Below, piece after piece: positions 34,672 through 42,595 of a stretch of 64,000 nt of DNA. The stretch is from Candidatus Eiseniibacteriota bacterium (GTDB lineage: Bacteria > Eisenbacteria > RBG-16-71-46), in contig JBGPFC010000008.1 of assembly GCA_041483195.1 (NCBI GenBank), forward strand, positions 32,001 through 96,000, given 5' to 3'. Both the position numbers and the translations under genes were made by a program. The notes under the pieces were generated by a model. The model had not been told where the DNA came from. It made no database searches and saw only the letters and a program-made list of their open reading frames with translations. Each line of letters starts with the position of its first letter. The first letter of the stretch is position 1.

Positions 34672-35883
34672 CTACGGGCGCGACGGCGGAGCGGGCGGGG
34701 TCTTGAGTTGCTGGAGCTCCCGGTGGAGGCGCTGGATCTGCCGCTCGATCTCGGCGATGCGGCTCGGAGTGGGCTTCGAGTCGGCGGGAGCCACCGCCTC
34801 CGCCGCCCACTGCGGCATGGAATGCGGGGACTCGCCGAGCACGGCGCGGCCGACGTGCTGGATTTCGTCCCGCACCCAGACGAGATCGACGGTCGTGCCG
34901 GGCGGCGTGGATGCGACCCAGCGCGCGAGCTGGCCCGGGTACTCGACGCGCTCCCGGTCGAATCCCACGATGAGGTCGCCGCGCCGGAGCGCGAGCCGGG
35001 CGGCAGGCCCCGCGGGTTCGACGGTCTCGACGAGCGCGCCGATCGGCACGCTCAGGCCCGCCTCGGTCTCGCTCTGGACGCTCGCGCCACTGGTGCTCAC
35101 GCCCAGGTATCCGTGGTGCACGCGTCCGTCGCGCCTGAGGCTCTCGTACACCGGACGCACGTTCTCGACGGGCAGCACGAAGCTCATGCCCGCGGGGCGT
35201 CGCTCGCCATCGGGCGCGGCGCCGGCGCCGGGCACGCCGAGCTCGCCCTGGATGATGCCGACCAGCTCGCCCCGCGTGTTGAGCGCGGCGCCCCCGCTAT
35301 TGCCCGGATAGACGGTGTTGGTGAGCTGCAGCAGCGCCATCCGCGGCTCGGGATAGCGATACGCGACGTACCCGACGGACTGCGTGGGCTGCGCGCGGTA
35401 CGAGGTCCCGAGCGCGATCGCCCAGTCACCCACCTGGGGCGGGCGCTCCTCCGCGAACCGAATCGGCGGAAGGCGGAGCTGGGGCACGCGGAGCAGCGCG
35501 AGATTGAACACCGGATCGACCCCGACGATGTCGGCGTCCACCTGAAGCCCGTTCACGCTGCGCACCAGGACCCGATCCGCGCCCAGCACCACGCTCGCGG
35601 TGGTGAGGATCAGGTTCTCGTCGACGGCGACGCCCGATCCGACGCGGGTGTGCAACCGTTGCTCGGCACCGTGGGTGCGCGAGGCGGCCACCGCGACCGC
35701 CCGTTGCGCGAAGACGGAGACCACCGAGGCGCGTGCGGCGAGGGTGATCTGATCGACGTCGGTCTGAAGCGCGGAAAGAGCGCCCTGCGCGAATCCGGGC
35801 GCGGCATACACCAGCCCGATCCCGAGGCACAGAGACGCCAGCGTGCGGCGCACCGGCGTCACCCAGCGGAACCGGCGTCGCAT
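34672..35883 (-). CDS. HtrA/DegS-like S1C trypsin-fold + PDZ protein with degenerate catalytic triad
   Basis: Signal peptide; GSGV, PGNSGG, GYLGV (PDZ); TTASVV replaces TNxHVV and FNLAL replaces xDLAL. Confidence 0.8.
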   Translation of the reverse strand: MRRRFRWVTPVRRTLASLCLGIGLVYAAPGFAQGALSALQTDVDQITLAARASVVSVFAQRAVAVAASRTHGAEQRLHTRVGSGVAVDENLILTTASVVLGADRVLVRSVNGLQVDADIVGVDPVFNLALLRVPQLRLPPIRFAEERPPQVGDWAIALGTSYRAQPTQSVGYVAYRYPEPRMALLQLTNTVYPGNSGGAALNTRGELVGIIQGELGVPGAGAAPDGERRPAGMSFVLPVENVRPVYESLRRDGRVHHGYLGVSTSGASVQSETEAGLSVPIGALVETVEPAGPAARLALRRGDLIVGFDRERVEYPGQLARWVASTPPGTTVDLVWVRDEIQHVGRAVLGESPHSMPQWAAEAVAPADSKPTPSRIAEIERQIQRLHRELQQLKTPPAPPSRP

Positions 35884-35894
35884 GCGATGGCTCC

Positions 35895-36518
35895 TCAGAA
35901 CGAGATCACGGCCTTCTCGCCCTGCACGCCATTCGGCGATCGCGACACCGTCGCACGGCCGCGATGAAGCGTCACGGGGTCGAGGATGAATTCGACGTCC
36001 TCGCTGTGATCGAAGAGGCTGTCGGAGATTGCGGCGCCCGACGCGTTCGCCAACAGCTGGCGGCCGGCCGCGGGCGCGCTCTGATCAAGCCGCGCGGAAC
36101 CACGCGCGGCGACCGGGCTCACGATCTCGGGCTCGCGCAGCGCCCGCACGGAATTCCCGGTGGGGAGGGTGCGGTGGCCACGCGGCAACGCGCCGAGCCA
36201 TGGGAGGACGAGCGACACCACGAGGGCCGCGAGCGCGGCGGCCGCCGTGATCGAGACCCAGTGCGGGCTCGCGGCCGGGAAGCGATCGGGCGCCGGAGCC
36301 ACGCGCCGCGTGCGCGCCAGCACCCGGTCGAGCAGATCGGGGGCGGCTTCGAGGCGGGGCAGTGCGCCCGCGATCTCGACCGCCCGCGAGAATTCCTCGT
36401 ACTCCTGCCGGCACGGGACGCATGCGCCGAGGTGCGCTTCCAGCCACTCGCGCTCGGCCTGCGTGGTCTCGTCGTCCCAGTAGGATCCAAACAGCCGCCG
36501 GGCCTGCCCGCATTTCAT
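35895..36518 (-). CDS. Anti-sigma factor with zf-HC2 (ZAS) domain and one TM helix
   Basis: MKC...HLGACVPC (HxxxCxxC); ATGA overlap with sigma factor gene. Confidence 0.88.
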   Translation of the reverse strand: MKCGQARRLFGSYWDDETTQAEREWLEAHLGACVPCRQEYEEFSRAVEIAGALPRLEAAPDLLDRVLARTRRVAPAPDRFPAASPHWVSITAAAALAALVVSLVLPWLGALPRGHRTLPTGNSVRALREPEIVSPVAARGSARLDQSAPAAGRQLLANASGAAISDSLFDHSEDVEFILDPVTLHRGRATVSRSPNGVQGEKAVISF

Positions 36519-37150
36519 GAGGAACCTTCCCGTCGAAGCAGCGGTTGAAGTTTTCGCTTCAGCATGCTCCGCGCACGGTTGATGCGCGAGCGCACCGTGC
36601 CGCCCGGAATGCTGAGCACCTGTGCAATCTCCTCGTACGGCAACCCCTCGATATCGCGCAGCACCAGCGCCAGCCGGTATTTCTCCGGCACCGTCGCGAT
36701 CGCGAGCCCCATCGCCTCCTGCAGCTGCTCGCGCTCCATCCGGCTCTCGCGGCCCTCGGTCGGATCCGCCAGCTGAATCGCGCTGTCCTTGAGCGCCTCC
36801 TGGAGTGCGTCCAGGCTGAACCAGTTGCGTCTTCGTACTCGCCGGCGAATCTCGTTCTTCGCGAGGTTCGCCGCGATCGTGAAGAGCCACGTCGAGAACT
36901 TGGAGCCGCGCCGGTAGTTTCTCCGGTGGACGAACACACGCACGAACACCTCCTGCGTGATGTCGTCTCCGCATTCGCGATCGTTCAGCACCCGGCCCAC
37001 CAGGTTGATGACGCGACCTTGAAAGCGGCGGACCAACTCCGAGAACGCGCGCTCGTCATCCTCCGCGACGCGTCCCATGAGATCCTCGTCGGAGAGGCTC
37101 AGGATGGTCGGTGCGGCGGTATCACGATCGGGCGCCACGGGCTCAGTCAC
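36515..37150 (-). CDS. ECF sigma factor (RpoE/SigW-like)
   Basis: DITQEVF, KFSTWLFTIAAN, YEEIAQVLSIPGGTVRSRINRAR. Confidence 0.93.
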   Translation of the reverse strand: MTEPVAPDRDTAAPTILSLSDEDLMGRVAEDDERAFSELVRRFQGRVINLVGRVLNDRECGDDITQEVFVRVFVHRRNYRRGSKFSTWLFTIAANLAKNEIRRRVRRRNWFSLDALQEALKDSAIQLADPTEGRESRMEREQLQEAMGLAIATVPEKYRLALVLRDIEGLPYEEIAQVLSIPGGTVRSRINRARSMLKRKLQPLLRREGSS

Positions 37151-37159
37151 CCTCGTGTG

Positions 37160-37185
37160 CTACCCCGGGGAGCGGGGGCAGTTCC
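37160..37185 (-). promoter_or_regulatory. Candidate ECF autoregulatory promoter
   Basis: GGAACT-N16-GTAG on minus strand, ending 10 nt before the sigma start codon. Confidence 0.6.
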
Positions 37186-37191
37186 ACGGCG

Positions 37192-38862
37192 TTAGGGAAG
37201 GCCATCGAGCTTCGATCTCACCCGGAGATTGCCGTGATCCGCGGCCAGGCTCCGGCGGTACTGATCGCGGGCCAACTCGATGAGGCGCATGTCTTTGTAG
37301 ACATCTCCCAGGTGCTCGTACACGACCGGGTCTCCCCCGCTCAGTCGGATCGCGCGCTCCAGCTCGCGCCGCGCGTCCTCGAGACGACCGAGCCGATAGT
37401 AGACCCATCCCATCGAGTCCACGTATGCCCCGTTGTCCGGCTCCCGCTCCACGGCCCGCCGGATGAGCGCCTCGGCCTCGGGAAGATCGCGATCGTGATC
37501 GGCGAGCAGGTAGCCGAGAAAATTGAGCGCAGAGGGACTGTCGGGCCTGGCTGCGAGCACATCGCGCGCCGCCCGCTCCGCACCCGCGAGGTCACCGAGT
37601 TGCTCGCGACAGTACGAGAGATCGAGCCCGATCTCGACTTCGGCGGGAAAACGGCGCAAAGTTTCGCTCCAGATCTGGGACGCCTCGGGGAAGTGCTTCT
37701 GCGTCTGCTCGATCCGCCCGAGCAGCAGCCGTGGCCCGAGCGAGTCGGGGGCCATCTCGATCGCGCGTCGCGCCGCCGCCAGTGCCGGCTCATTCTCTGC
37801 CGCCACCGCATGGGCCCGCGCCAGGAGCATCGGCCCCCGGTAGTCGTTCGGATGGCGTCGCGACCAGCCGTCGGCGAGCTGGACCGACTCGCGATTCCGC
37901 CGGTTCCGGGCCAGCACGTCGAGACGCCGGTCCAGATTCTCGGGATCGTCCGGCCCCAGCCGCGCGATGCGGTCGAGCAGCTGAAATCCCTCGGTCGATC
38001 GACCGAGCCTGAGCGCGAGATCGGCCTCGACGGCCAGTGCGTCAGCATCCTCGGGTCGCGCGCGCGTCACCCGCTGGGACTCCCGGTAGGCGTCCGCGAA
38101 GCGCTTCTCGTCGATCAGGAGCGCCACGAGCCGCTGGCGCGTCGCATCATCGCCATCGTGGATCTTCAGGTGGCGCTGATACAGATCGATCGCCTCGCGC
38201 GGATGGCCGAGGCCCTCTTCGATCCAGCCCTGCAGGAAGAGAACCCCGGGACGGAGCGGATTGCCTGCGGCCGCCTGGGTGAGCGCCGACTTCGCGGCCG
38301 CGAAACGCCCCAGGCGCGCCTCGGCCGCCGCGAGTTGGAACCAGGACTCGCCGTCCTCCTCGTCGAGCGCGACGATGCGACGGTAGGCCCTGGCCACCAC
38401 GTCGAATCGATCCAGTTCTTCGCCAATCCGGCCGAGCGTCTTGAGATATTCGACGTGATCGGAGTCGGCGGCGACCGCGGCTTCCAGCGCGTCCAGCGCC
38501 TCAGCCGAACGGCCCAGATTGAAGAGCGCGGAGCCTTCGAGCCACAGCGCGCGCGGGTCTCGCGCATCGATCGTCAGCGCTCGCTGTGCGAACTCGAGCG
38601 AACCCGACGCGTCACCCAGCCGCGCGGCCGTCTCGCTCAATCGTCGCGCAGTCGCGATGGATCGCGGGTCGAGAGAGAGGGCACGATAGTACTCGCCCAG
38701 CGCATCGGTCCCGGCGCCACGCTCTTCGAGCAGCCGGCCCTGCGCGTATCGGCGCAGGGCCTCCTCGCTCGGAAACTGTGACGCCGCGGCGGCGGTGTCG
38801 CCGCCGGGCGCGGGGCTGGTGGTCGCGGCGCTGACCAACAGGCTGAGTGCGATATGCCACAT
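37192..38862 (-). CDS. Exported tetratricopeptide-repeat protein
   Basis: Signal peptide MWHIALSLLVSA; multiple TPRs; C-terminal ALNFLGYLLAD...YVDSMGWVYYRLG...EHLGD. Confidence 0.85.
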   Translation of the reverse strand: MWHIALSLLVSAATTSPAPGGDTAAAASQFPSEEALRRYAQGRLLEERGAGTDALGEYYRALSLDPRSIATARRLSETAARLGDASGSLEFAQRALTIDARDPRALWLEGSALFNLGRSAEALDALEAAVAADSDHVEYLKTLGRIGEELDRFDVVARAYRRIVALDEEDGESWFQLAAAEARLGRFAAAKSALTQAAAGNPLRPGVLFLQGWIEEGLGHPREAIDLYQRHLKIHDGDDATRQRLVALLIDEKRFADAYRESQRVTRARPEDADALAVEADLALRLGRSTEGFQLLDRIARLGPDDPENLDRRLDVLARNRRNRESVQLADGWSRRHPNDYRGPMLLARAHAVAAENEPALAAARRAIEMAPDSLGPRLLLGRIEQTQKHFPEASQIWSETLRRFPAEVEIGLDLSYCREQLGDLAGAERAARDVLAARPDSPSALNFLGYLLADHDRDLPEAEALIRRAVEREPDNGAYVDSMGWVYYRLGRLEDARRELERAIRLSGGDPVVYEHLGDVYKDMRLIELARDQYRRSLAADHGNLRVRSKLDGLP

Positions 38863-39018
38863 CGCATCGAGGGTAACACGCGCCGCGTTCGCGCCGGAAG
38901 CGGCACGGCTGGTTCGCGCGCCCGAGACTCTGATGAGTGGAAAAGTTCTGCCATGACGAGAATTCGCGAAGGTGGTATGAATGGACGGGACGTCCCCTCG
39001 GGTCGCAGGCAGGTGGCC

Positions 39019-40425
39019 ATGCAAACCTCAGAGCCCCAGGCGCGCATTCTCGTCGTCGACGACGAGCCGCAGACCGCGGTCGCCATCGAGCGGATGGTCG
39101 CGCACTTCGGTCACGATGTGGTGGGAGCCGACTCCGCGGAAGCCGCGATCCGTCACTTCACCGGGTCGTCGATCGACGTCGTGCTCACCGATCTCAACCT
39201 GGGACGAACCGACGGACTCGAATTGCTCCGCCGCATGCAGGAGCACGATCCCACCGTCCCGGTCGTGCTCATTACGGGGTACGCCACCGCGAATTCGGCC
39301 ATGGAGGCGATTCAGGCCGGCGCCTACGACTACCTTCCCAAGCCCCCCACGCTCGAAGCGATTGGCGCGCTGCTCCGGCGTGCGATCGAGAAGAAACGAA
39401 ACACCGAGGCGAATCGGCGGAGCGAGCTGGTTCCCGAAGTGCCCGGTCTGCTCGACGAGATCGTCTCGGGCAAGTCATCCCGCATGCTCGACGTCTACAA
39501 GGTGGTCGCGCGGGTTGCCATGGCCCGAAGCAGCGTGCTCATCCTCGGGGAAAGCGGAACCGGGAAGGAGCTGGTCGCGCGCGCCCTCCATCGCAGGAGC
39601 CCGCGCGCCGACCGCGACTTCGTCCCGGTCAACGTCTCGGCGATCCCGGAAGGGCTGCTGGAGAGTGAACTGTTCGGACACGTGCGGGGAGCCTTCACCG
39701 GCGCATCGTCCTCGCGCCGCGGCCTCTTCGATCAGGCCCACCTCGGCACGCTGTTCCTGGACGAGATCGGCGATCTCACCATCACGTTGCAGGCCAAGCT
39801 GCTGCGCGTGCTCCAGGAGCATCGCTTCAAGCCGGTCGGCAGCAACGAGGAAACGGAAGTGGACGTGCGCGTGGTCGGCGCGACCCATCGCAATCTCGAG
39901 GAGATGGTGCGGCTGGGGCGGTTTCGCGAGGATCTCTATTACCGGCTCAACGTGGTGTCGGTCTCGCTCCCGCCGCTGCGCGAACGGCGCGAGGACATTC
40001 CGATCCTGATCGAGCATTTCCTGCGCAAGTACTCGCAACAGACCGGGCGGCCCGCACCCGGAGTGTCGCCCGAGGCGATGCGCCGCGCGATGGACTTCCC
40101 ATGGCCCGGCAACGTCCGCCAACTCGAAAACGTGATCGAGCGCGCGGTGGTGCTCTCCACACAGGGAGTGATCGGACCCGAGGCCATGCCGCCGCGCCTG
40201 CCCTGGAGCGGCGGAGCGATCGCGGTGGATCGGGCCGAATTTCCGAGCCTCGACGAGATCATCCAGCGCTACGTCGAGGAGGTGCTCGCTCACACCGGGG
40301 GCAATCGTACGCGCGCGGCCATGATTCTCGGCATCTCCCGGCGCACGCTCCACAGGATGGCAGAGCGCGAGCGTCAGGGGGCCACGCGTGGCAGCGACGA
40401 CTTGACCCACATCGGGCAAGACTGA
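39019..40425 (+). CDS. Sigma54-dependent response regulator (REC-AAA+-Fis HTH, NtrC/AtoC family)
   Basis: ILVVDDE, GESGTGKE, ESELFGHVRGAFTGA, FREDLYYRLNV, WPGNVRQL, C-terminal HTH. Confidence 0.95.
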   Translation: MQTSEPQARILVVDDEPQTAVAIERMVAHFGHDVVGADSAEAAIRHFTGSSIDVVLTDLNLGRTDGLELLRRMQEHDPTVPVVLITGYATANSAMEAIQAGAYDYLPKPPTLEAIGALLRRAIEKKRNTEANRRSELVPEVPGLLDEIVSGKSSRMLDVYKVVARVAMARSSVLILGESGTGKELVARALHRRSPRADRDFVPVNVSAIPEGLLESELFGHVRGAFTGASSSRRGLFDQAHLGTLFLDEIGDLTITLQAKLLRVLQEHRFKPVGSNEETEVDVRVVGATHRNLEEMVRLGRFREDLYYRLNVVSVSLPPLRERREDIPILIEHFLRKYSQQTGRPAPGVSPEAMRRAMDFPWPGNVRQLENVIERAVVLSTQGVIGPEAMPPRLPWSGGAIAVDRAEFPSLDEIIQRYVEEVLAHTGGNRTRAAMILGISRRTLHRMAERERQGATRGSDDLTHIGQD

Positions 40426-40606
40426 CGCTCAAGTTCCAACACTCTCCTGCTACCCAAGTTGTAGCGGCACCCGCGCCGGGCTGGGACATTTCGGCGCTGC
40501 GACGCCAGACGACACGGCCCGCCCGGGAATAGATTGGCCGAGCGCGAGTCCCGCAACCCTTTACCATACGAAACGATGAGAACTACGGCCTGCGATTCTC
40601 CATCGC

Positions 40607-40621
40607 TGGCATGTGAGTTGC
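40607..40621 (+). promoter_or_regulatory. Sigma54 (-24/-12) promoter
   Basis: TGGCAT-GTGAG-TTGC fits TGGCAY-N5-TTGC with correct spacing; directly downstream of a bEBP gene. Confidence 0.75.
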
Positions 40622-40632
40622 GGCTATCTTCT

Positions 40633-40853
40633 CTATGGGGTGGACAGTCTTCCCCGCATGGACGCGGGTACGTTTGGCAACCGAGCAGACGCCGCATGAG
40701 AAGTTGGGGCCACAGACCGAGGCGCGGCGGCGCGCAGGTTGCGATTGTCTGTCGTCACCGTGTGAGGGGCACGGAGAATCCGAGGGGCCTGTCCCGATCG
40801 CGTGTGGCGGCAGTTTGGGAGCGGGGGGCGAGTGCCCCCCGCTTCATTTTCTT
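40633..40853 (+). ncRNA. Candidate sigma54-dependent small RNA (~220 nt)
   Basis: Bounded by sigma54 promoter and a +strand intrinsic terminator; several hairpins; no credible ORF. Confidence 0.5.
40818..40853 (+). terminator. Rho-independent terminator
   Basis: GAGCGGGGGGC-GAGT-GCCCCCCGCTT followed by CATTTTCTT. Confidence 0.8.
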
Positions 40854-40876
40854 GTGACCCTCGGCCGCTCCGCGAG

Positions 40877-42595
40877 CTAGTCGTTCCGGGGCGCGCGTCG
40901 GGCCCGGCCGGGTCGGCGACCGTATGCCCCGGGCGCCGGTTTCGCGATCGCGGGTGGCGCTTCGCGCATGGCGGGCGCGGCCGGCTCATGCGCCGGCGAG
41001 TCCTCGTGCTCGTCCACGTCCTCGGGCGCTTCCGATCCGGTCGATTCTTCCGGCGTGGCCTCCGGCGCGTCCTCGAACCTGACGGGTTCCGACAGGTCGG
41101 GCACGGCCTCGGGATGAAACTCCTCCTCGACTGGGGACGGCTCGATCGCATACGGATCGACGTGACGCTCCTCGATCGGGCCCTCCGGTCTGCCCACTTC
41201 TTCGAGCTCGTCCTCCTCGTAAGCCGGCGGAACAGGTTCGATCTCGCGCGGCTCGACTTCCGGCGGCTCGATCGCGCGCCGACGCGGAGCCACCGGCGCC
41301 CGTAGCGGCGCCCGCAGCGGCGCACGTTCGACCACCGCCTCGCGCTCGACCACCGGCGCACGCTCGACTACCGGCGCGCGCTCGACCACCGGCTCCGCGC
41401 TCTCCACCATCGGAGCTTCGTCGCCACGCGGCCTCCGACCGCGACCGCCGCGTCGTCCGCGGCGCCGGCGCCGGCGCATCTCATCGCTCTCATCTTCGGT
41501 CACGACCTCGGCCTGCGATTCGACGGCAGGCGCGGGCGTGGTCACGTGCCCTTCCCGCGATTCACGGACGCGCGGCTCACGCTCGCGAGGTTCGCGCTCG
41601 CCTCCCTCTCGGGCCGGCCGCTCGCCCCGCTCGCTGCCCACGCGATCGAGCGCGTCGCGTGCCGCGGCCTGCTCCGCCTCCTTCTTGTTGTTGCCCTTGC
41701 CCTCGCCGAGCGCCCGCCGCCCGACCAGCACCTCGACCATGAAGTGCTTCGAATGATCGGGGCCCATCTCACTGCGGATCCGATAGACCGGATGCGTGCG
41801 GAACGTGCTCTGCACGTACTCCTGCAGGTGGCTCTTGTAGTTCGTGTGCCGCTTGTCCGCGACGATCTCAGGCGCGTCGCGCAGCAACCACCGCTGGATG
41901 AAGGCCCGAGCTGCCTCGAACCCCTGATCCAGGTAGATCGCGCCGATCACGGATTCGAATGCGTCGGCCAGGATCGAGAGACGCTGCCTCCCGCCCGATT
42001 CGATCTCGGAGTGGCTCATCAGCACGAAACGCCCGAGGCCCATCGCCAGCGCGCGTCGCGAGAGGATGGCCTTCGACACCAGCAGCGACTTGGTCTTCGT
42101 GAGCTGGCCTTCGTGCTCCGTGGGATGTTGCCGGTACAACGACTCGCTGGTCACCAGTCCCAGCACCGAGTCGCCCAGGAACTCCAGACGCTCGTTGGAT
42201 TCGCGGGGACCCTGCCCCGTCACGCTCAGGTAGGAGCGGTGGGTGAGCGCGAGCTTGAGCAGCTCGAGCCGATTGAAGGTGATGCCGTAGTGGCGCCCGA
42301 ACTCGGCGAGGATGCGGGCTTCCTGCTCGCTGGTCCCGATTCTCGCGGCGCGCTGCTCAGGGGCGCGGCGCGGCGGCGCGAACAGCGACCGCAGCCAGCT
42401 CCATAGCGAGAATCCCCGGCGGGGCGGCGGCGGTTGCGGTCCGCGCGGCCGGCGCCTGCCCCCGCGGCGGCGGCGTCCTACGTCGCGGCCTTCATGGCCA
42501 GAGTCACGTTGTGTCCCCCGAACCCGAACGAGTTCGAGAGAGCGGCCCTCACGCGCAGCGCGCGGGCCTGGTTGGGAACGAAATCGAGGTCGCAT
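40877..42595 (-). CDS. rnc: Ribonuclease III with N-terminal extension and long disordered C-terminal tail (start uncertain)
   Basis: ALTHRS, NERLEFLGDSVL, LADAFESVIGAIYLD, dsRBD (NYKSHLQE...KKEAEQAAA); follows fabF. Confidence 0.9.
   Translation of the reverse strand: MRPRFRSQPGPRAAREGRSLELVRVRGTQRDSGHEGRDVGRRRRGGRRRPRGPQPPPPRRGFSLWSWLRSLFAPPRRAPEQRAARIGTSEQEARILAEFGRHYGITFNRLELLKLALTHRSYLSVTGQGPRESNERLEFLGDSVLGLVTSESLYRQHPTEHEGQLTKTKSLLVSKAILSRRALAMGLGRFVLMSHSEIESGGRQRLSILADAFESVIGAIYLDQGFEAARAFIQRWLLRDAPEIVADKRHTNYKSHLQEYVQSTFRTHPVYRIRSEMGPDHSKHFMVEVLVGRRALGEGKGNNKKEAEQAAARDALDRVGSERGERPAREGGEREPREREPRVRESREGHVTTPAPAVESQAEVVTEDESDEMRRRRRRGRRGGRGRRPRGDEAPMVESAEPVVERAPVVERAPVVEREAVVERAPLRAPLRAPVAPRRRAIEPPEVEPREIEPVPPAYEEDELEEVGRPEGPIEERHVDPYAIEPSPVEEEFHPEAVPDLSEPVRFEDAPEATPEESTGSEAPEDVDEHEDSPAHEPAAPAMREAPPAIAKPAPGAYGRRPGRARRAPRND
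41295..41410 (-). repeat. Coding tandem repeats in the rnc tail (18-bp PVVERA units, 12-bp RAPL units)
   Basis: Repeated cgctcgaccaccggcgc units; translation EPVVERAPVVERAPVVEREAVVERAPLRAPLRAP. Confidence 0.8.

Follow-up and report, generated by a model that had tools for sequence, protein, structure and literature searches.

Several described systems resemble parts of the locus analysed here. In Myxococcus, Pxr is an sRNA encoded directly downstream of the sigma54 response regulator PxrR/Nla19, and the available portions of two reports describe its own sigma54 promoter, a function that resides in a conserved loop and a host without hfq (PMC5568312, PMC5684412). GlmZ activates glmS by pairing with its leader and opening a structure that hides the ribosome-binding site (RBS); the same source, as far as its accessible text goes, lists SroC and the chb intergenic decoy for ChiX as sponges made from mRNAs, and CsrB and CrcZ as multi-site sponges of proteins (PMC13501541). 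G-rich and C-rich RNAs pair independently of Hfq in Bacillus subtilis, according to the part consulted on RosA and its partners RoxS and FsrA (PMC8216469), and the cuckoo RNAs of Alphaproteobacteria are described, in the section available, as modular hairpins with anti-SD-like CCUCCUCCC loops (PMC4615179).

We analysed a 64,000-nt stretch of DNA (the window; G000:C8:32001-96000) from a Candidatus Eisenbacteria genome (G000; 4.17 Mb, 96.8% complete), in which an original prediction, made from the sequence alone, had placed an unannotated module of an activator and a sigma54-dependent sRNA. Conservation of promoter, enhancer sites and structure bears the module out, no Rfam family matches it, and by these comparisons the RNA is a real new sRNA family. 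The comparative evidence is also good for a candidate seed, one putative target class and a predicted multi-loop partner RNA. From sequence we infer that the sRNA is transcribed, that it pairs and in which direction it would regulate. On balance we consider it probable that this is a trans-acting, base-pairing sRNA, that one class of its targets is the leader of a pilus-subunit-like mRNA and that some lineages possess a multi-site sponge derived from that mRNA.

Locus layout and the conserved hairpin

The predicted RNA lies in a 451-nt gap between the activator open reading frame (ending at 40425) and rnc (40877), and all coordinates of the original prediction were confirmed on the sequence (Table 1). 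The regulator noted for its GAFTGA motif is, by Pfam, a sigma54 activator of REC–AAA+–HTH type; it stays under all NCBIfam equivalog cut-offs among the best 25 families listed, a kinase gene is absent beside it, and 40 of 43 loci have an orthologue no farther than 900 nt upstream of the hairpin. The -24/-12 box is correctly placed and recurs 68–235 nt upstream of the loop in 39 of the 43 located loci (of the other four, a contig end truncates one and the box is degenerate in two), and the whole 4.17-Mb genome contains 13 matches to the strict pattern TGGCAY-N5-TTGC. Of the genes to which the prediction had pointed elsewhere in the genome, rpoN and csrA are present and hfq was not found in this 96.8% complete assembly; the 16S 3′ end was not found there either.

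Table 1 Features of the activator–sRNA cassette and its neighbours (window positions)
Feature	Position	Strand	Basis
TPR protein gene, divergent left neighbour	37192..38862	-	Pfam
CCCCTCGG, exactly complementary to the sRNA loop, in the leader of the activator itself	38994..39001	+	
Sigma54 enhancer-binding response regulator, probable activator	39019..40425	+	Pfam: REC, AAA+ with GAFTGA, Fis HTH
Palindromic enhancer-like site 1, about -214 from the -24 box	40394..40408	.	Consensus GSGACA-N3-TGTCSC
Weaker enhancer-like site 2, about -194	40414..40428	.	Read from window
Enhancer-like site 3, about -125	40483..40497	.	Enhancer motif scan
Sigma54 -24/-12 promoter, predicted start near 40633	40607..40621	+	Sequence; box in 39/43 loci
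Variable 5′ part of the RNA, includes ANGGA hairpin 40653-40668	40633..40745	+	Comparison across loci
Conserved core, long bulged hairpin (65 nt)	40749..40813	+	Covariance model R1, covariation
Invariant apical loop CCGAGGGG, proposed SD-like seed	40780..40787	+	Comparison
Intrinsic terminator hairpin and U tract	40818..40853	+	Sequence; 8/11 pairs with two-sided change
Convergent rnc (RNase III, long C-terminal tail), fixed right neighbour	40877..42595	-	Pfam

A palindrome (GSGACA-N3-TGTCSC; motif learnt on 16 genera and scored over 39 loci) recurs at about -214, -194 and -125 from the -24 box. The first position is kept in most of the 39 loci, and the second is among the two best sites in several relatives and outside the two best scores of G000. 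The sRNA promoter ranks first for this motif among 49 sigma54-like sites of G000, a ranking in which it belonged to the training set. The palindrome is likely to be the activator's binding site, and the observed layout suggests that the upstream response regulator would bind these enhancers and drive transcription by sigma54. The loop complement in the activator's own leader is a possible feedback site, only weakly suggested: of 24 other readable activator orthologues, 7 have the 6-mer CCCTCG between -30 and +16 relative to the start, versus 80 of 3121 G000 genes, at positions that do not align between orthologues.

The predicted RNA measures 221 nt in G000 and about 120–290 nt across the Ca. 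Eisenbacteria family, and 40633-40853 folds with z = -2.7. Its 5′ part spans 6–135 nt in single-domain relatives, and the + strand terminator of the prediction is confirmed on the sequence, with two-sided change in 8 of its 11 pairs and a U tract that is weak in some relatives. The absence of a convincing ORF also held: a 53-aa ORF at 40696-40857 has no Pfam match and is unconserved, SD-led ORFs of at least 15 aa occur in 7 of 39 predicted transcripts with none in common, and no small ORF is conserved over the 39.

Downstream of the variable part, the core forms a hairpin whose basal helix pairs 40749-40758 with 40804-40813 and whose middle helices covary. The original prediction called for comparison with relatives, and there promoter and structure are kept. 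An alignment of 16 sequences, terminator included, had 93.9% of cells paired and two-sided changes in 14 of 32 pairs (8 in the terminator, 6 in the core), a level of pairing that 0 of 500 shuffles reached and that lay above every slid control. The + strand is favoured by G-U pairs and by model score (80 versus 15 bits). The apical loop is identical in 18 of 18 cassette-holding spacers picked by synteny and in 43 of 43 located loci, and the sRNA is predicted by comparison to fold as a long hairpin that presents this invariant, SD-like loop; in folding predictions the loop is partly closed, and 8-bp seed pairing is computed at -16 kcal/mol. Two hairpins of the original prediction fared less well. 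One (40653-40668, with ANGGA) exists in G000 but is not conserved, lying in the variable 5′ part; the letters of the other (40758-40774) are present, but its arms pair elsewhere within the covarying 40749-40813.

Half of the basal-helix pairs (5 of 10) never vary, more sequence conservation than pairing alone requires, and the helix resembles a half-site of the activator's enhancer; it may serve recognition by a protein or by RNase III, or preserve a vestige of how the hairpin arose. Two relatives have tandem core hairpins under one promoter with the loop in each (L024:3866-4056 in G013, L025:4046-4216 in G017), the second hairpin having a compensated closing pair. In G013 the activator gene is reduced to a fragment, with the RNA, its promoter and the enhancers kept. 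A divergent single hairpin in G012 (L039; 21 bits) has the invariant loop and an activator gene, and no recognisable sigma54 box.

The cassette has a fixed genomic address. Among 40 relatives whose rnc-downstream DNA was compared by synteny, 17, in addition to G000, have the CCGAGGGG hairpin in the rnc-side spacer; in 12, the DNA of which was read, the TPR gene directly follows rnc and the activator–RNA cassette is cleanly missing, and the remainder are cut by contig ends or arranged otherwise. Across loci, rnc lies downstream of the hairpin in 38 of 43. On the other side of the cassette, the minus strand of 34672-38862 encodes the TPR protein, an ECF sigma factor, a putative anti-sigma factor and DegP/HtrA, an rpoE-like envelope-stress cluster; RNase III itself (40877-42595) has a long, charged, low-complexity C-terminal tail beyond its dsRBD.

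A covariance model of 73 positions built from 16 cores matched 44 of 89 genomes of the family at E 0.1, 43 of them strongly (36–93 bits) and one by chance in coding DNA, which places the core at one locus per genome in 43 of 89; G012 is an additional, divergent copy found by synteny. The four weakest family matches (22–24 bits) were dropped for want of the promoter–hairpin layout in the DNA seen. None of 91 genomes from other families of the phylum matched. Activator gene and RNA are mostly co-present or co-absent, and on an RNase III tree of 41 rows cassette presence needs 9 changes, at least 4 of them forced by well-supported branches; given these changes and the single fixed location, the history reads best as ancestral presence with repeated loss of the whole cassette. 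In the sister family f2, the three closest activator homologues examined lead to protein-coding genes and not to an sRNA; there (L183-L185) the homologues follow a kinase-like ORF, with similar palindromes downstream and then small secreted-looking proteins.

Searches beyond the phylum's genomes gave little. A loose pattern scan of genome contigs returned at least 120 loci, mostly chance, two of which the model recognised as genuine, one of them on a contig labelled Ca. Eisenbacteria (80.5 bits), and 29 viral contigs sharing a loop-region 15-mer gave no convincing model match (best 15.9 bits). As the prediction had it, the RNA belongs to no recognised family: Rfam cmscan returned nothing at gathering for the window (best by E-value asX1, 25.9 bits versus a cut-off of 70), nothing for six related loci and two weak unrelated matches for five arrays. 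Our literature search found no published description of this sRNA, which subscription papers or supplementary tables of RNA-motif surveys could contain, and no sRNA work on the Ca. Eisenbacteria phylum.

Complementary sites in pilus-subunit-like leaders

In several RNA-bearing genomes, hairpin loops immediately ahead of the RBS of pilus-subunit-like genes display the loop complement CCCCUC(GG). In G003 the leader precedes an intact four-gene run, encoding a 176-aa secreted subunit, a 277-aa chaperone-like protein, a 689-aa protein and a 181-aa putative outer-membrane protein (OMP, a label we assigned from sequence), and it carries CCCCUCGG around -50 and CCCCUC around -24, the latter looped out on a hairpin that has the SD as its 3′ strand. 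The motif precedes subunit genes in RNA-bearing G003, G005 (two genes), G013, G048 and G099 and in the G000 remnant; it is absent from the subunit leaders of RNA-less G009, G014 and G018, and also from those of RNA-bearing G019, G044, G098 and G102. In G101 (54% complete) motif and module are weakened and the RNA was not found, and the g21 leader reads CACCUCGG while the sRNA loop is unchanged. No compensatory change between loop and sites was seen, both being invariant. Among 79 distinct metagenomic subunit leaders, 6 have the 7-mer and 12 the 6-mer, leaving 67 without even the latter; the background in G000 genes is 30 and 84 of 3118 (about 1% and 3%). The SD hairpin, aligned over 17 sequences, had 82% of cells paired and 10 two-sided changes (1 of 500 shuffles as high), with only 4 of 13 pairs covarying, not above shuffles (182 of 500).

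The subunit has no Pfam or NCBIfam match above cut-off and no significant Foldseek match. A UniRef homologue, itself from Ca. Eisenbacteria, is named spore coat protein U domain, and a structure model (pLDDT 87, its last 23 residues missing) compared best with VIA (Z 6.6, rmsd 6.3, 127 aligned), Fim/Csu subunits scoring Z 4.6–4.8; on this weak evidence it is probably a fibre protein of the chaperone-usher/spore-coat-U type.

G000 itself retains a decayed pilus-like operon (G000:C3 81350-82000, L234:1950-2600) with a sigma54 box, an intact two-site leader, a 41-codon subunit remnant and a chaperone fragment, and a nearly identical leader precedes an intact 176-aa gene on metagenome contig L426. 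The segment at about 81350-81900 holds the sigma54 box and three CCCCTCG, a cluster that alone is not rarer than chance (three shuffled 7-mers gave one cluster each); the leader ranks third of 3299 for duplex energy with the loop. Because the G000 pilus locus is a decayed remnant, the sRNA must have other targets there, and the main ones are expected beyond the subunit operon, since most RNA-bearing genomes are without it: the chaperone gene was found in 18 of 89 genomes, and many RNA-bearing genomes have neither array nor subunit gene. A looser site–SD–start pattern gave 134 matches versus 76 for controls in five RNA-bearing genomes and 85 versus 95 in five RNA-less ones, and was dropped as too noisy for naming further targets. 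Within the coding sequence of the chaperone gene, a CCCCTCG kept at the aligned position in 2 of 15 did not qualify as a conserved site. A single CCCCTCG stands shortly before a glycosyltransferase gene upstream of the OMP locus in G011, G049 and G005 (L336, L325 and L385), and is present in RNA-less G076 too; another lies in a type IV major pilin leader of G045 (L418), and none was found in the seven type IV pilin-like genes of G000.

Taken as a mechanism, the complementarity computed for the seed suggests that the sRNA loop would pair with the CCCCUC(GG) loops of other RNAs, loop to loop and independently of Hfq. One target class would be the leader of the pilus-subunit-like gene, with its sites at about -50 and -24, and sRNA binding would loosen the SD-bearing hairpin and turn translation on. 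In folding predictions, occupancy of the upstream site lowers the RBS opening cost by 1–10 kcal/mol overall (10.4 to 7.9 in G000, 10.7 to 5.3 in G003, 10.7 to 5.2 in G099 and 14.1 to 4.4 in G072), little in G005 and not at all for the second G013 domain or G048; opening the targets costs 10–22 kcal/mol.

The downstream site could equally block the ribosome. An sRNA lying at -25..-12 beside the SD would then repress the subunit mRNA, with the rest of our reading unchanged, and predicted duplexes can extend into the SD. The 30S footprint covers the position of this second site, which thus falls inside the region a ribosome usually occupies. Against this, the SD is already paired in the free leader (mean unpaired 0.15–0.44, versus 0.37–0.53 in three motif-free leaders from RNA-less genomes), which favours an activating role, and pairing at the upstream site can take the anti-SD strand. 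We place activation slightly ahead of repression of the subunit mRNA in these models; as a full account, repression seems unlikely to us.

Multi-loop arrays and alternative readings

In 16 relatives (G004, G017, G023, G042, G061-G067, G070-G072, G074 and G105), the subunit and chaperone genes are missing at the locus, and an array follows what is retained of it: the leader, in most cases a start codon, and the sigma54 box (degenerate in G042 and cut off in G070). Arrays total 3–9 CCCCUCG sites, mostly 57–82 nt apart, in a predicted RNA of about 600–800 nt. In a count made upstream of the OMP gene, for which 70 of the 84 genomes having that gene were examined and five were excluded for less than 900 nt of upstream DNA, at least three sites were present in 13 of 38 RNA-bearing genomes (G000 included) versus 1 of 27 others; the single exception, G042, has its activator and promoter cut by a contig end, and at the OMP locus arrays were found only in cassette-carrying genomes. 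The 7-mer had 83 matches versus 7, 25, 8 and 6 for its antisense and shuffled counterparts, and 104 array sites (not independent of one another) were unpaired at 0.91 versus 0.46 for 250 genomic copies. The arrays are non-coding: 99 of 110 indels in five array pairs (G066-G067 excluded) are not multiples of three. Genome-wide, the three-site pattern occurs in 20 of 89 genomes (control 1), 13 of which are OMP-locus arrays; the other 7 were set aside as tandem repeats or coding DNA without a sigma54 box, as were 10 three-site loci in other families, likewise, as far as checked, with no promoter within 900 nt.

The last array site sits on a long hairpin, behind which several genomes have a U-rich tail, and no OMP gene follows the array in G004 or in one G105 copy; the array therefore reads as a transcript of its own, and others may be long OMP leaders. 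G105 has two different arrays, of 8 and 4 sites (L351, L344), one of them followed by an apparent transposase start. On the RNase III tree the arrays of three genera fall in one clade and G017 stands apart, which argues for one or two origins. We propose that loss of the pilus genes in several lineages left a leader that expanded into a separate sigma54-driven non-coding RNA with 3–9 loops, which as a multi-site sponge would set a threshold for the sRNA. That a target mRNA stripped of its genes was rebuilt as a dedicated sigma54-driven sponge, with up to nine identical kissing loops, is a tentative claim to which we give slightly less than even confidence. If true, the sponge would match CsrB in a base-pairing form and would parallel, among bacteria, the multi-site sponges of miRNAs; the intermediates of its evolution would be visible as intact operon, decayed operon and array; and in some species the sRNA's own activator would switch the sponge on, forming a threshold or pulse generator.

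The polarity could also run the other way, with the C-rich multi-loop RNA as a regulator that represses mRNAs with a GAGGGG SD and the G-rich RNA as its SD-mimicking sponge. RosA, whose G-rich regions pair with C-rich ones in RoxS and FsrA in the available account (PMC8216469), is a precedent, as are the cuckoo RNAs, described in the accessible text as having an anti-SD motif in 2–4 loops (PMC4615179). CGAGGGG stands at the SD position of 19 of 3119 G000 genes versus 5 further upstream, and some array promoters (those of genus g2 and one G105 copy) score for the sRNA enhancer motif, which intact subunit promoters do not. Set against these points, the array is missing at the OMP locus in 25 of 38 RNA-bearing genomes with the sRNA intact, and the genome-wide three-site pattern revealed no other array in them. 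Array-less RNA-bearing genomes are thus common and cassette-less arrays were not found at the locus, which fits a primary role of the sRNA; and since the former subunit leader and start codon stand at the head of the arrays, the array sites were first mRNA targets. We regard reversed polarity as doubtful.

Doubt is stronger still for a protein decoy, in which the RNA would titrate CsrA or another RNA-binding protein and the complementarity would be incidental or due to a protein that recognises one of the motifs. The original prediction had raised CsrA with the ANGGA hairpin and had counted four GGA triplets. csrA is indeed present in G000 (134976-135230 of C2, where it adjoins a PAS/kinase-like gene and another sigma54 activator, with no obvious flagellar cluster), A-N-GGA occurs beside the loop in many orthologues, and the basal helix is over-conserved in sequence. 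The count of four triplets stands, but it is no enrichment (mean 5.8 in 1000 dinucleotide shuffles); ANGGA occurs in the variable 5′ part of 10 of 39 loci at no fixed place; the conserved GGA near the loop is mostly paired (unpaired 0.03–0.37) and missing in several domains; and csrA, found in 55 of 61 relatives with or without the RNA, does not track it. With the hairpin unconserved and GGA at chance, CsrA sponging is unlikely, and any protein decoy would leave unexplained why complementary loops are confined to cassette-bearing genomes; the CsrA lead does not stand. Least credible of all is an element that does not act in trans, whether it serves the 3′ end of rnc in cis, is a repeat acting at the DNA level or encodes a small protein: its frequent rnc neighbour and enhancer-like basal helix would fit, against which it has its own promoter, enhancers and + strand terminator, a clear strand preference and no conserved ORF, and where an insertion separates rnc in G006 the hairpin remains with the activator.

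Comparison with described systems

What characterizes trans-acting sRNAs was found here: an own promoter and terminator, conserved structure without a conserved ORF, and a conserved seed with conserved complementary sites in other transcripts (without compensatory change). Rfam holds a Pxr model, and cmscan gave no match to it at gathering or at E up to 10, only weak unrelated families. As in the Pxr system as far as its sources describe it, the Eisenbacteria sRNA lies downstream of a sigma54 response regulator, has a sigma54 promoter and a conserved loop, and no hfq was found; unlike the three stem-loops described for Pxr, it is one long hairpin with a G-rich loop in a different phylum, and its candidate partners are visible.

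GlmY is driven by sigma54 and GlrR. No Rfam model of GlmY/GlmZ or Qrr matched, and hfq was not found in G000. Leader opening of the GlmZ type, as outlined in the accessible source, is what we propose for the Eisenbacteria sRNA; the decoys differ, being a complementary RNA here and a protein-titrating homologue in the GlmY case. The many conserved GGA/ANGGA loops of Csr/Rsm sponges (CsrB, RsmY/Z) are lacking in a genome that has csrA, and the A-rich, Hfq-binding repeats of CrcZ/CrcY, which the prediction had reported missing, are absent from all 39 predicted transcripts. What is conserved is the G-rich loop together with its C-rich complements on the loops of other transcripts, a feature invisible to single-sequence reading.

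Like RosA in the portion of its report available, the Eisenbacteria pair is predicted to join a G-rich to a C-rich stretch. RosA has three G-rich regions and is the sponge, whereas here the G-rich RNA shows a single loop and occurs more widely than its C-rich partner, which descends from an mRNA leader and displays as many as nine loops. The array shares with the cuckoo RNAs, as their accessible description runs, repeated hairpins each with an anti-SD-like loop; it differs in its CCCCUC loop and in having 3–9 spaced hairpins over 600–800 nt instead of 2–4 adjacent ones, and the five arrays searched had no Rfam match to that family. By the tests run, sRNA and array belong to none of the compared systems.

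For an uncultured phylum, the locus adds a regulatory RNA family with a proposed seed, a target class and a candidate antagonist, and it points to Hfq-independent, loop–loop recognition by an SD-like seed. If confirmed, the array would be a sponge existing in nature that pairs at many sites and was made from a target mRNA once its genes had gone, and a direct record of sponge evolution. It would resemble SroC, the chb decoy, CsrB and CrcZ, as presented in the consulted part of their source, in being a target-mRNA-derived sponge of repeated binding loops; the multi-site sponges described there bind proteins and the pairing ones are fragments of working mRNAs, whereas the Eisenbacteria array would pair at many sites and persists after its genes are lost.
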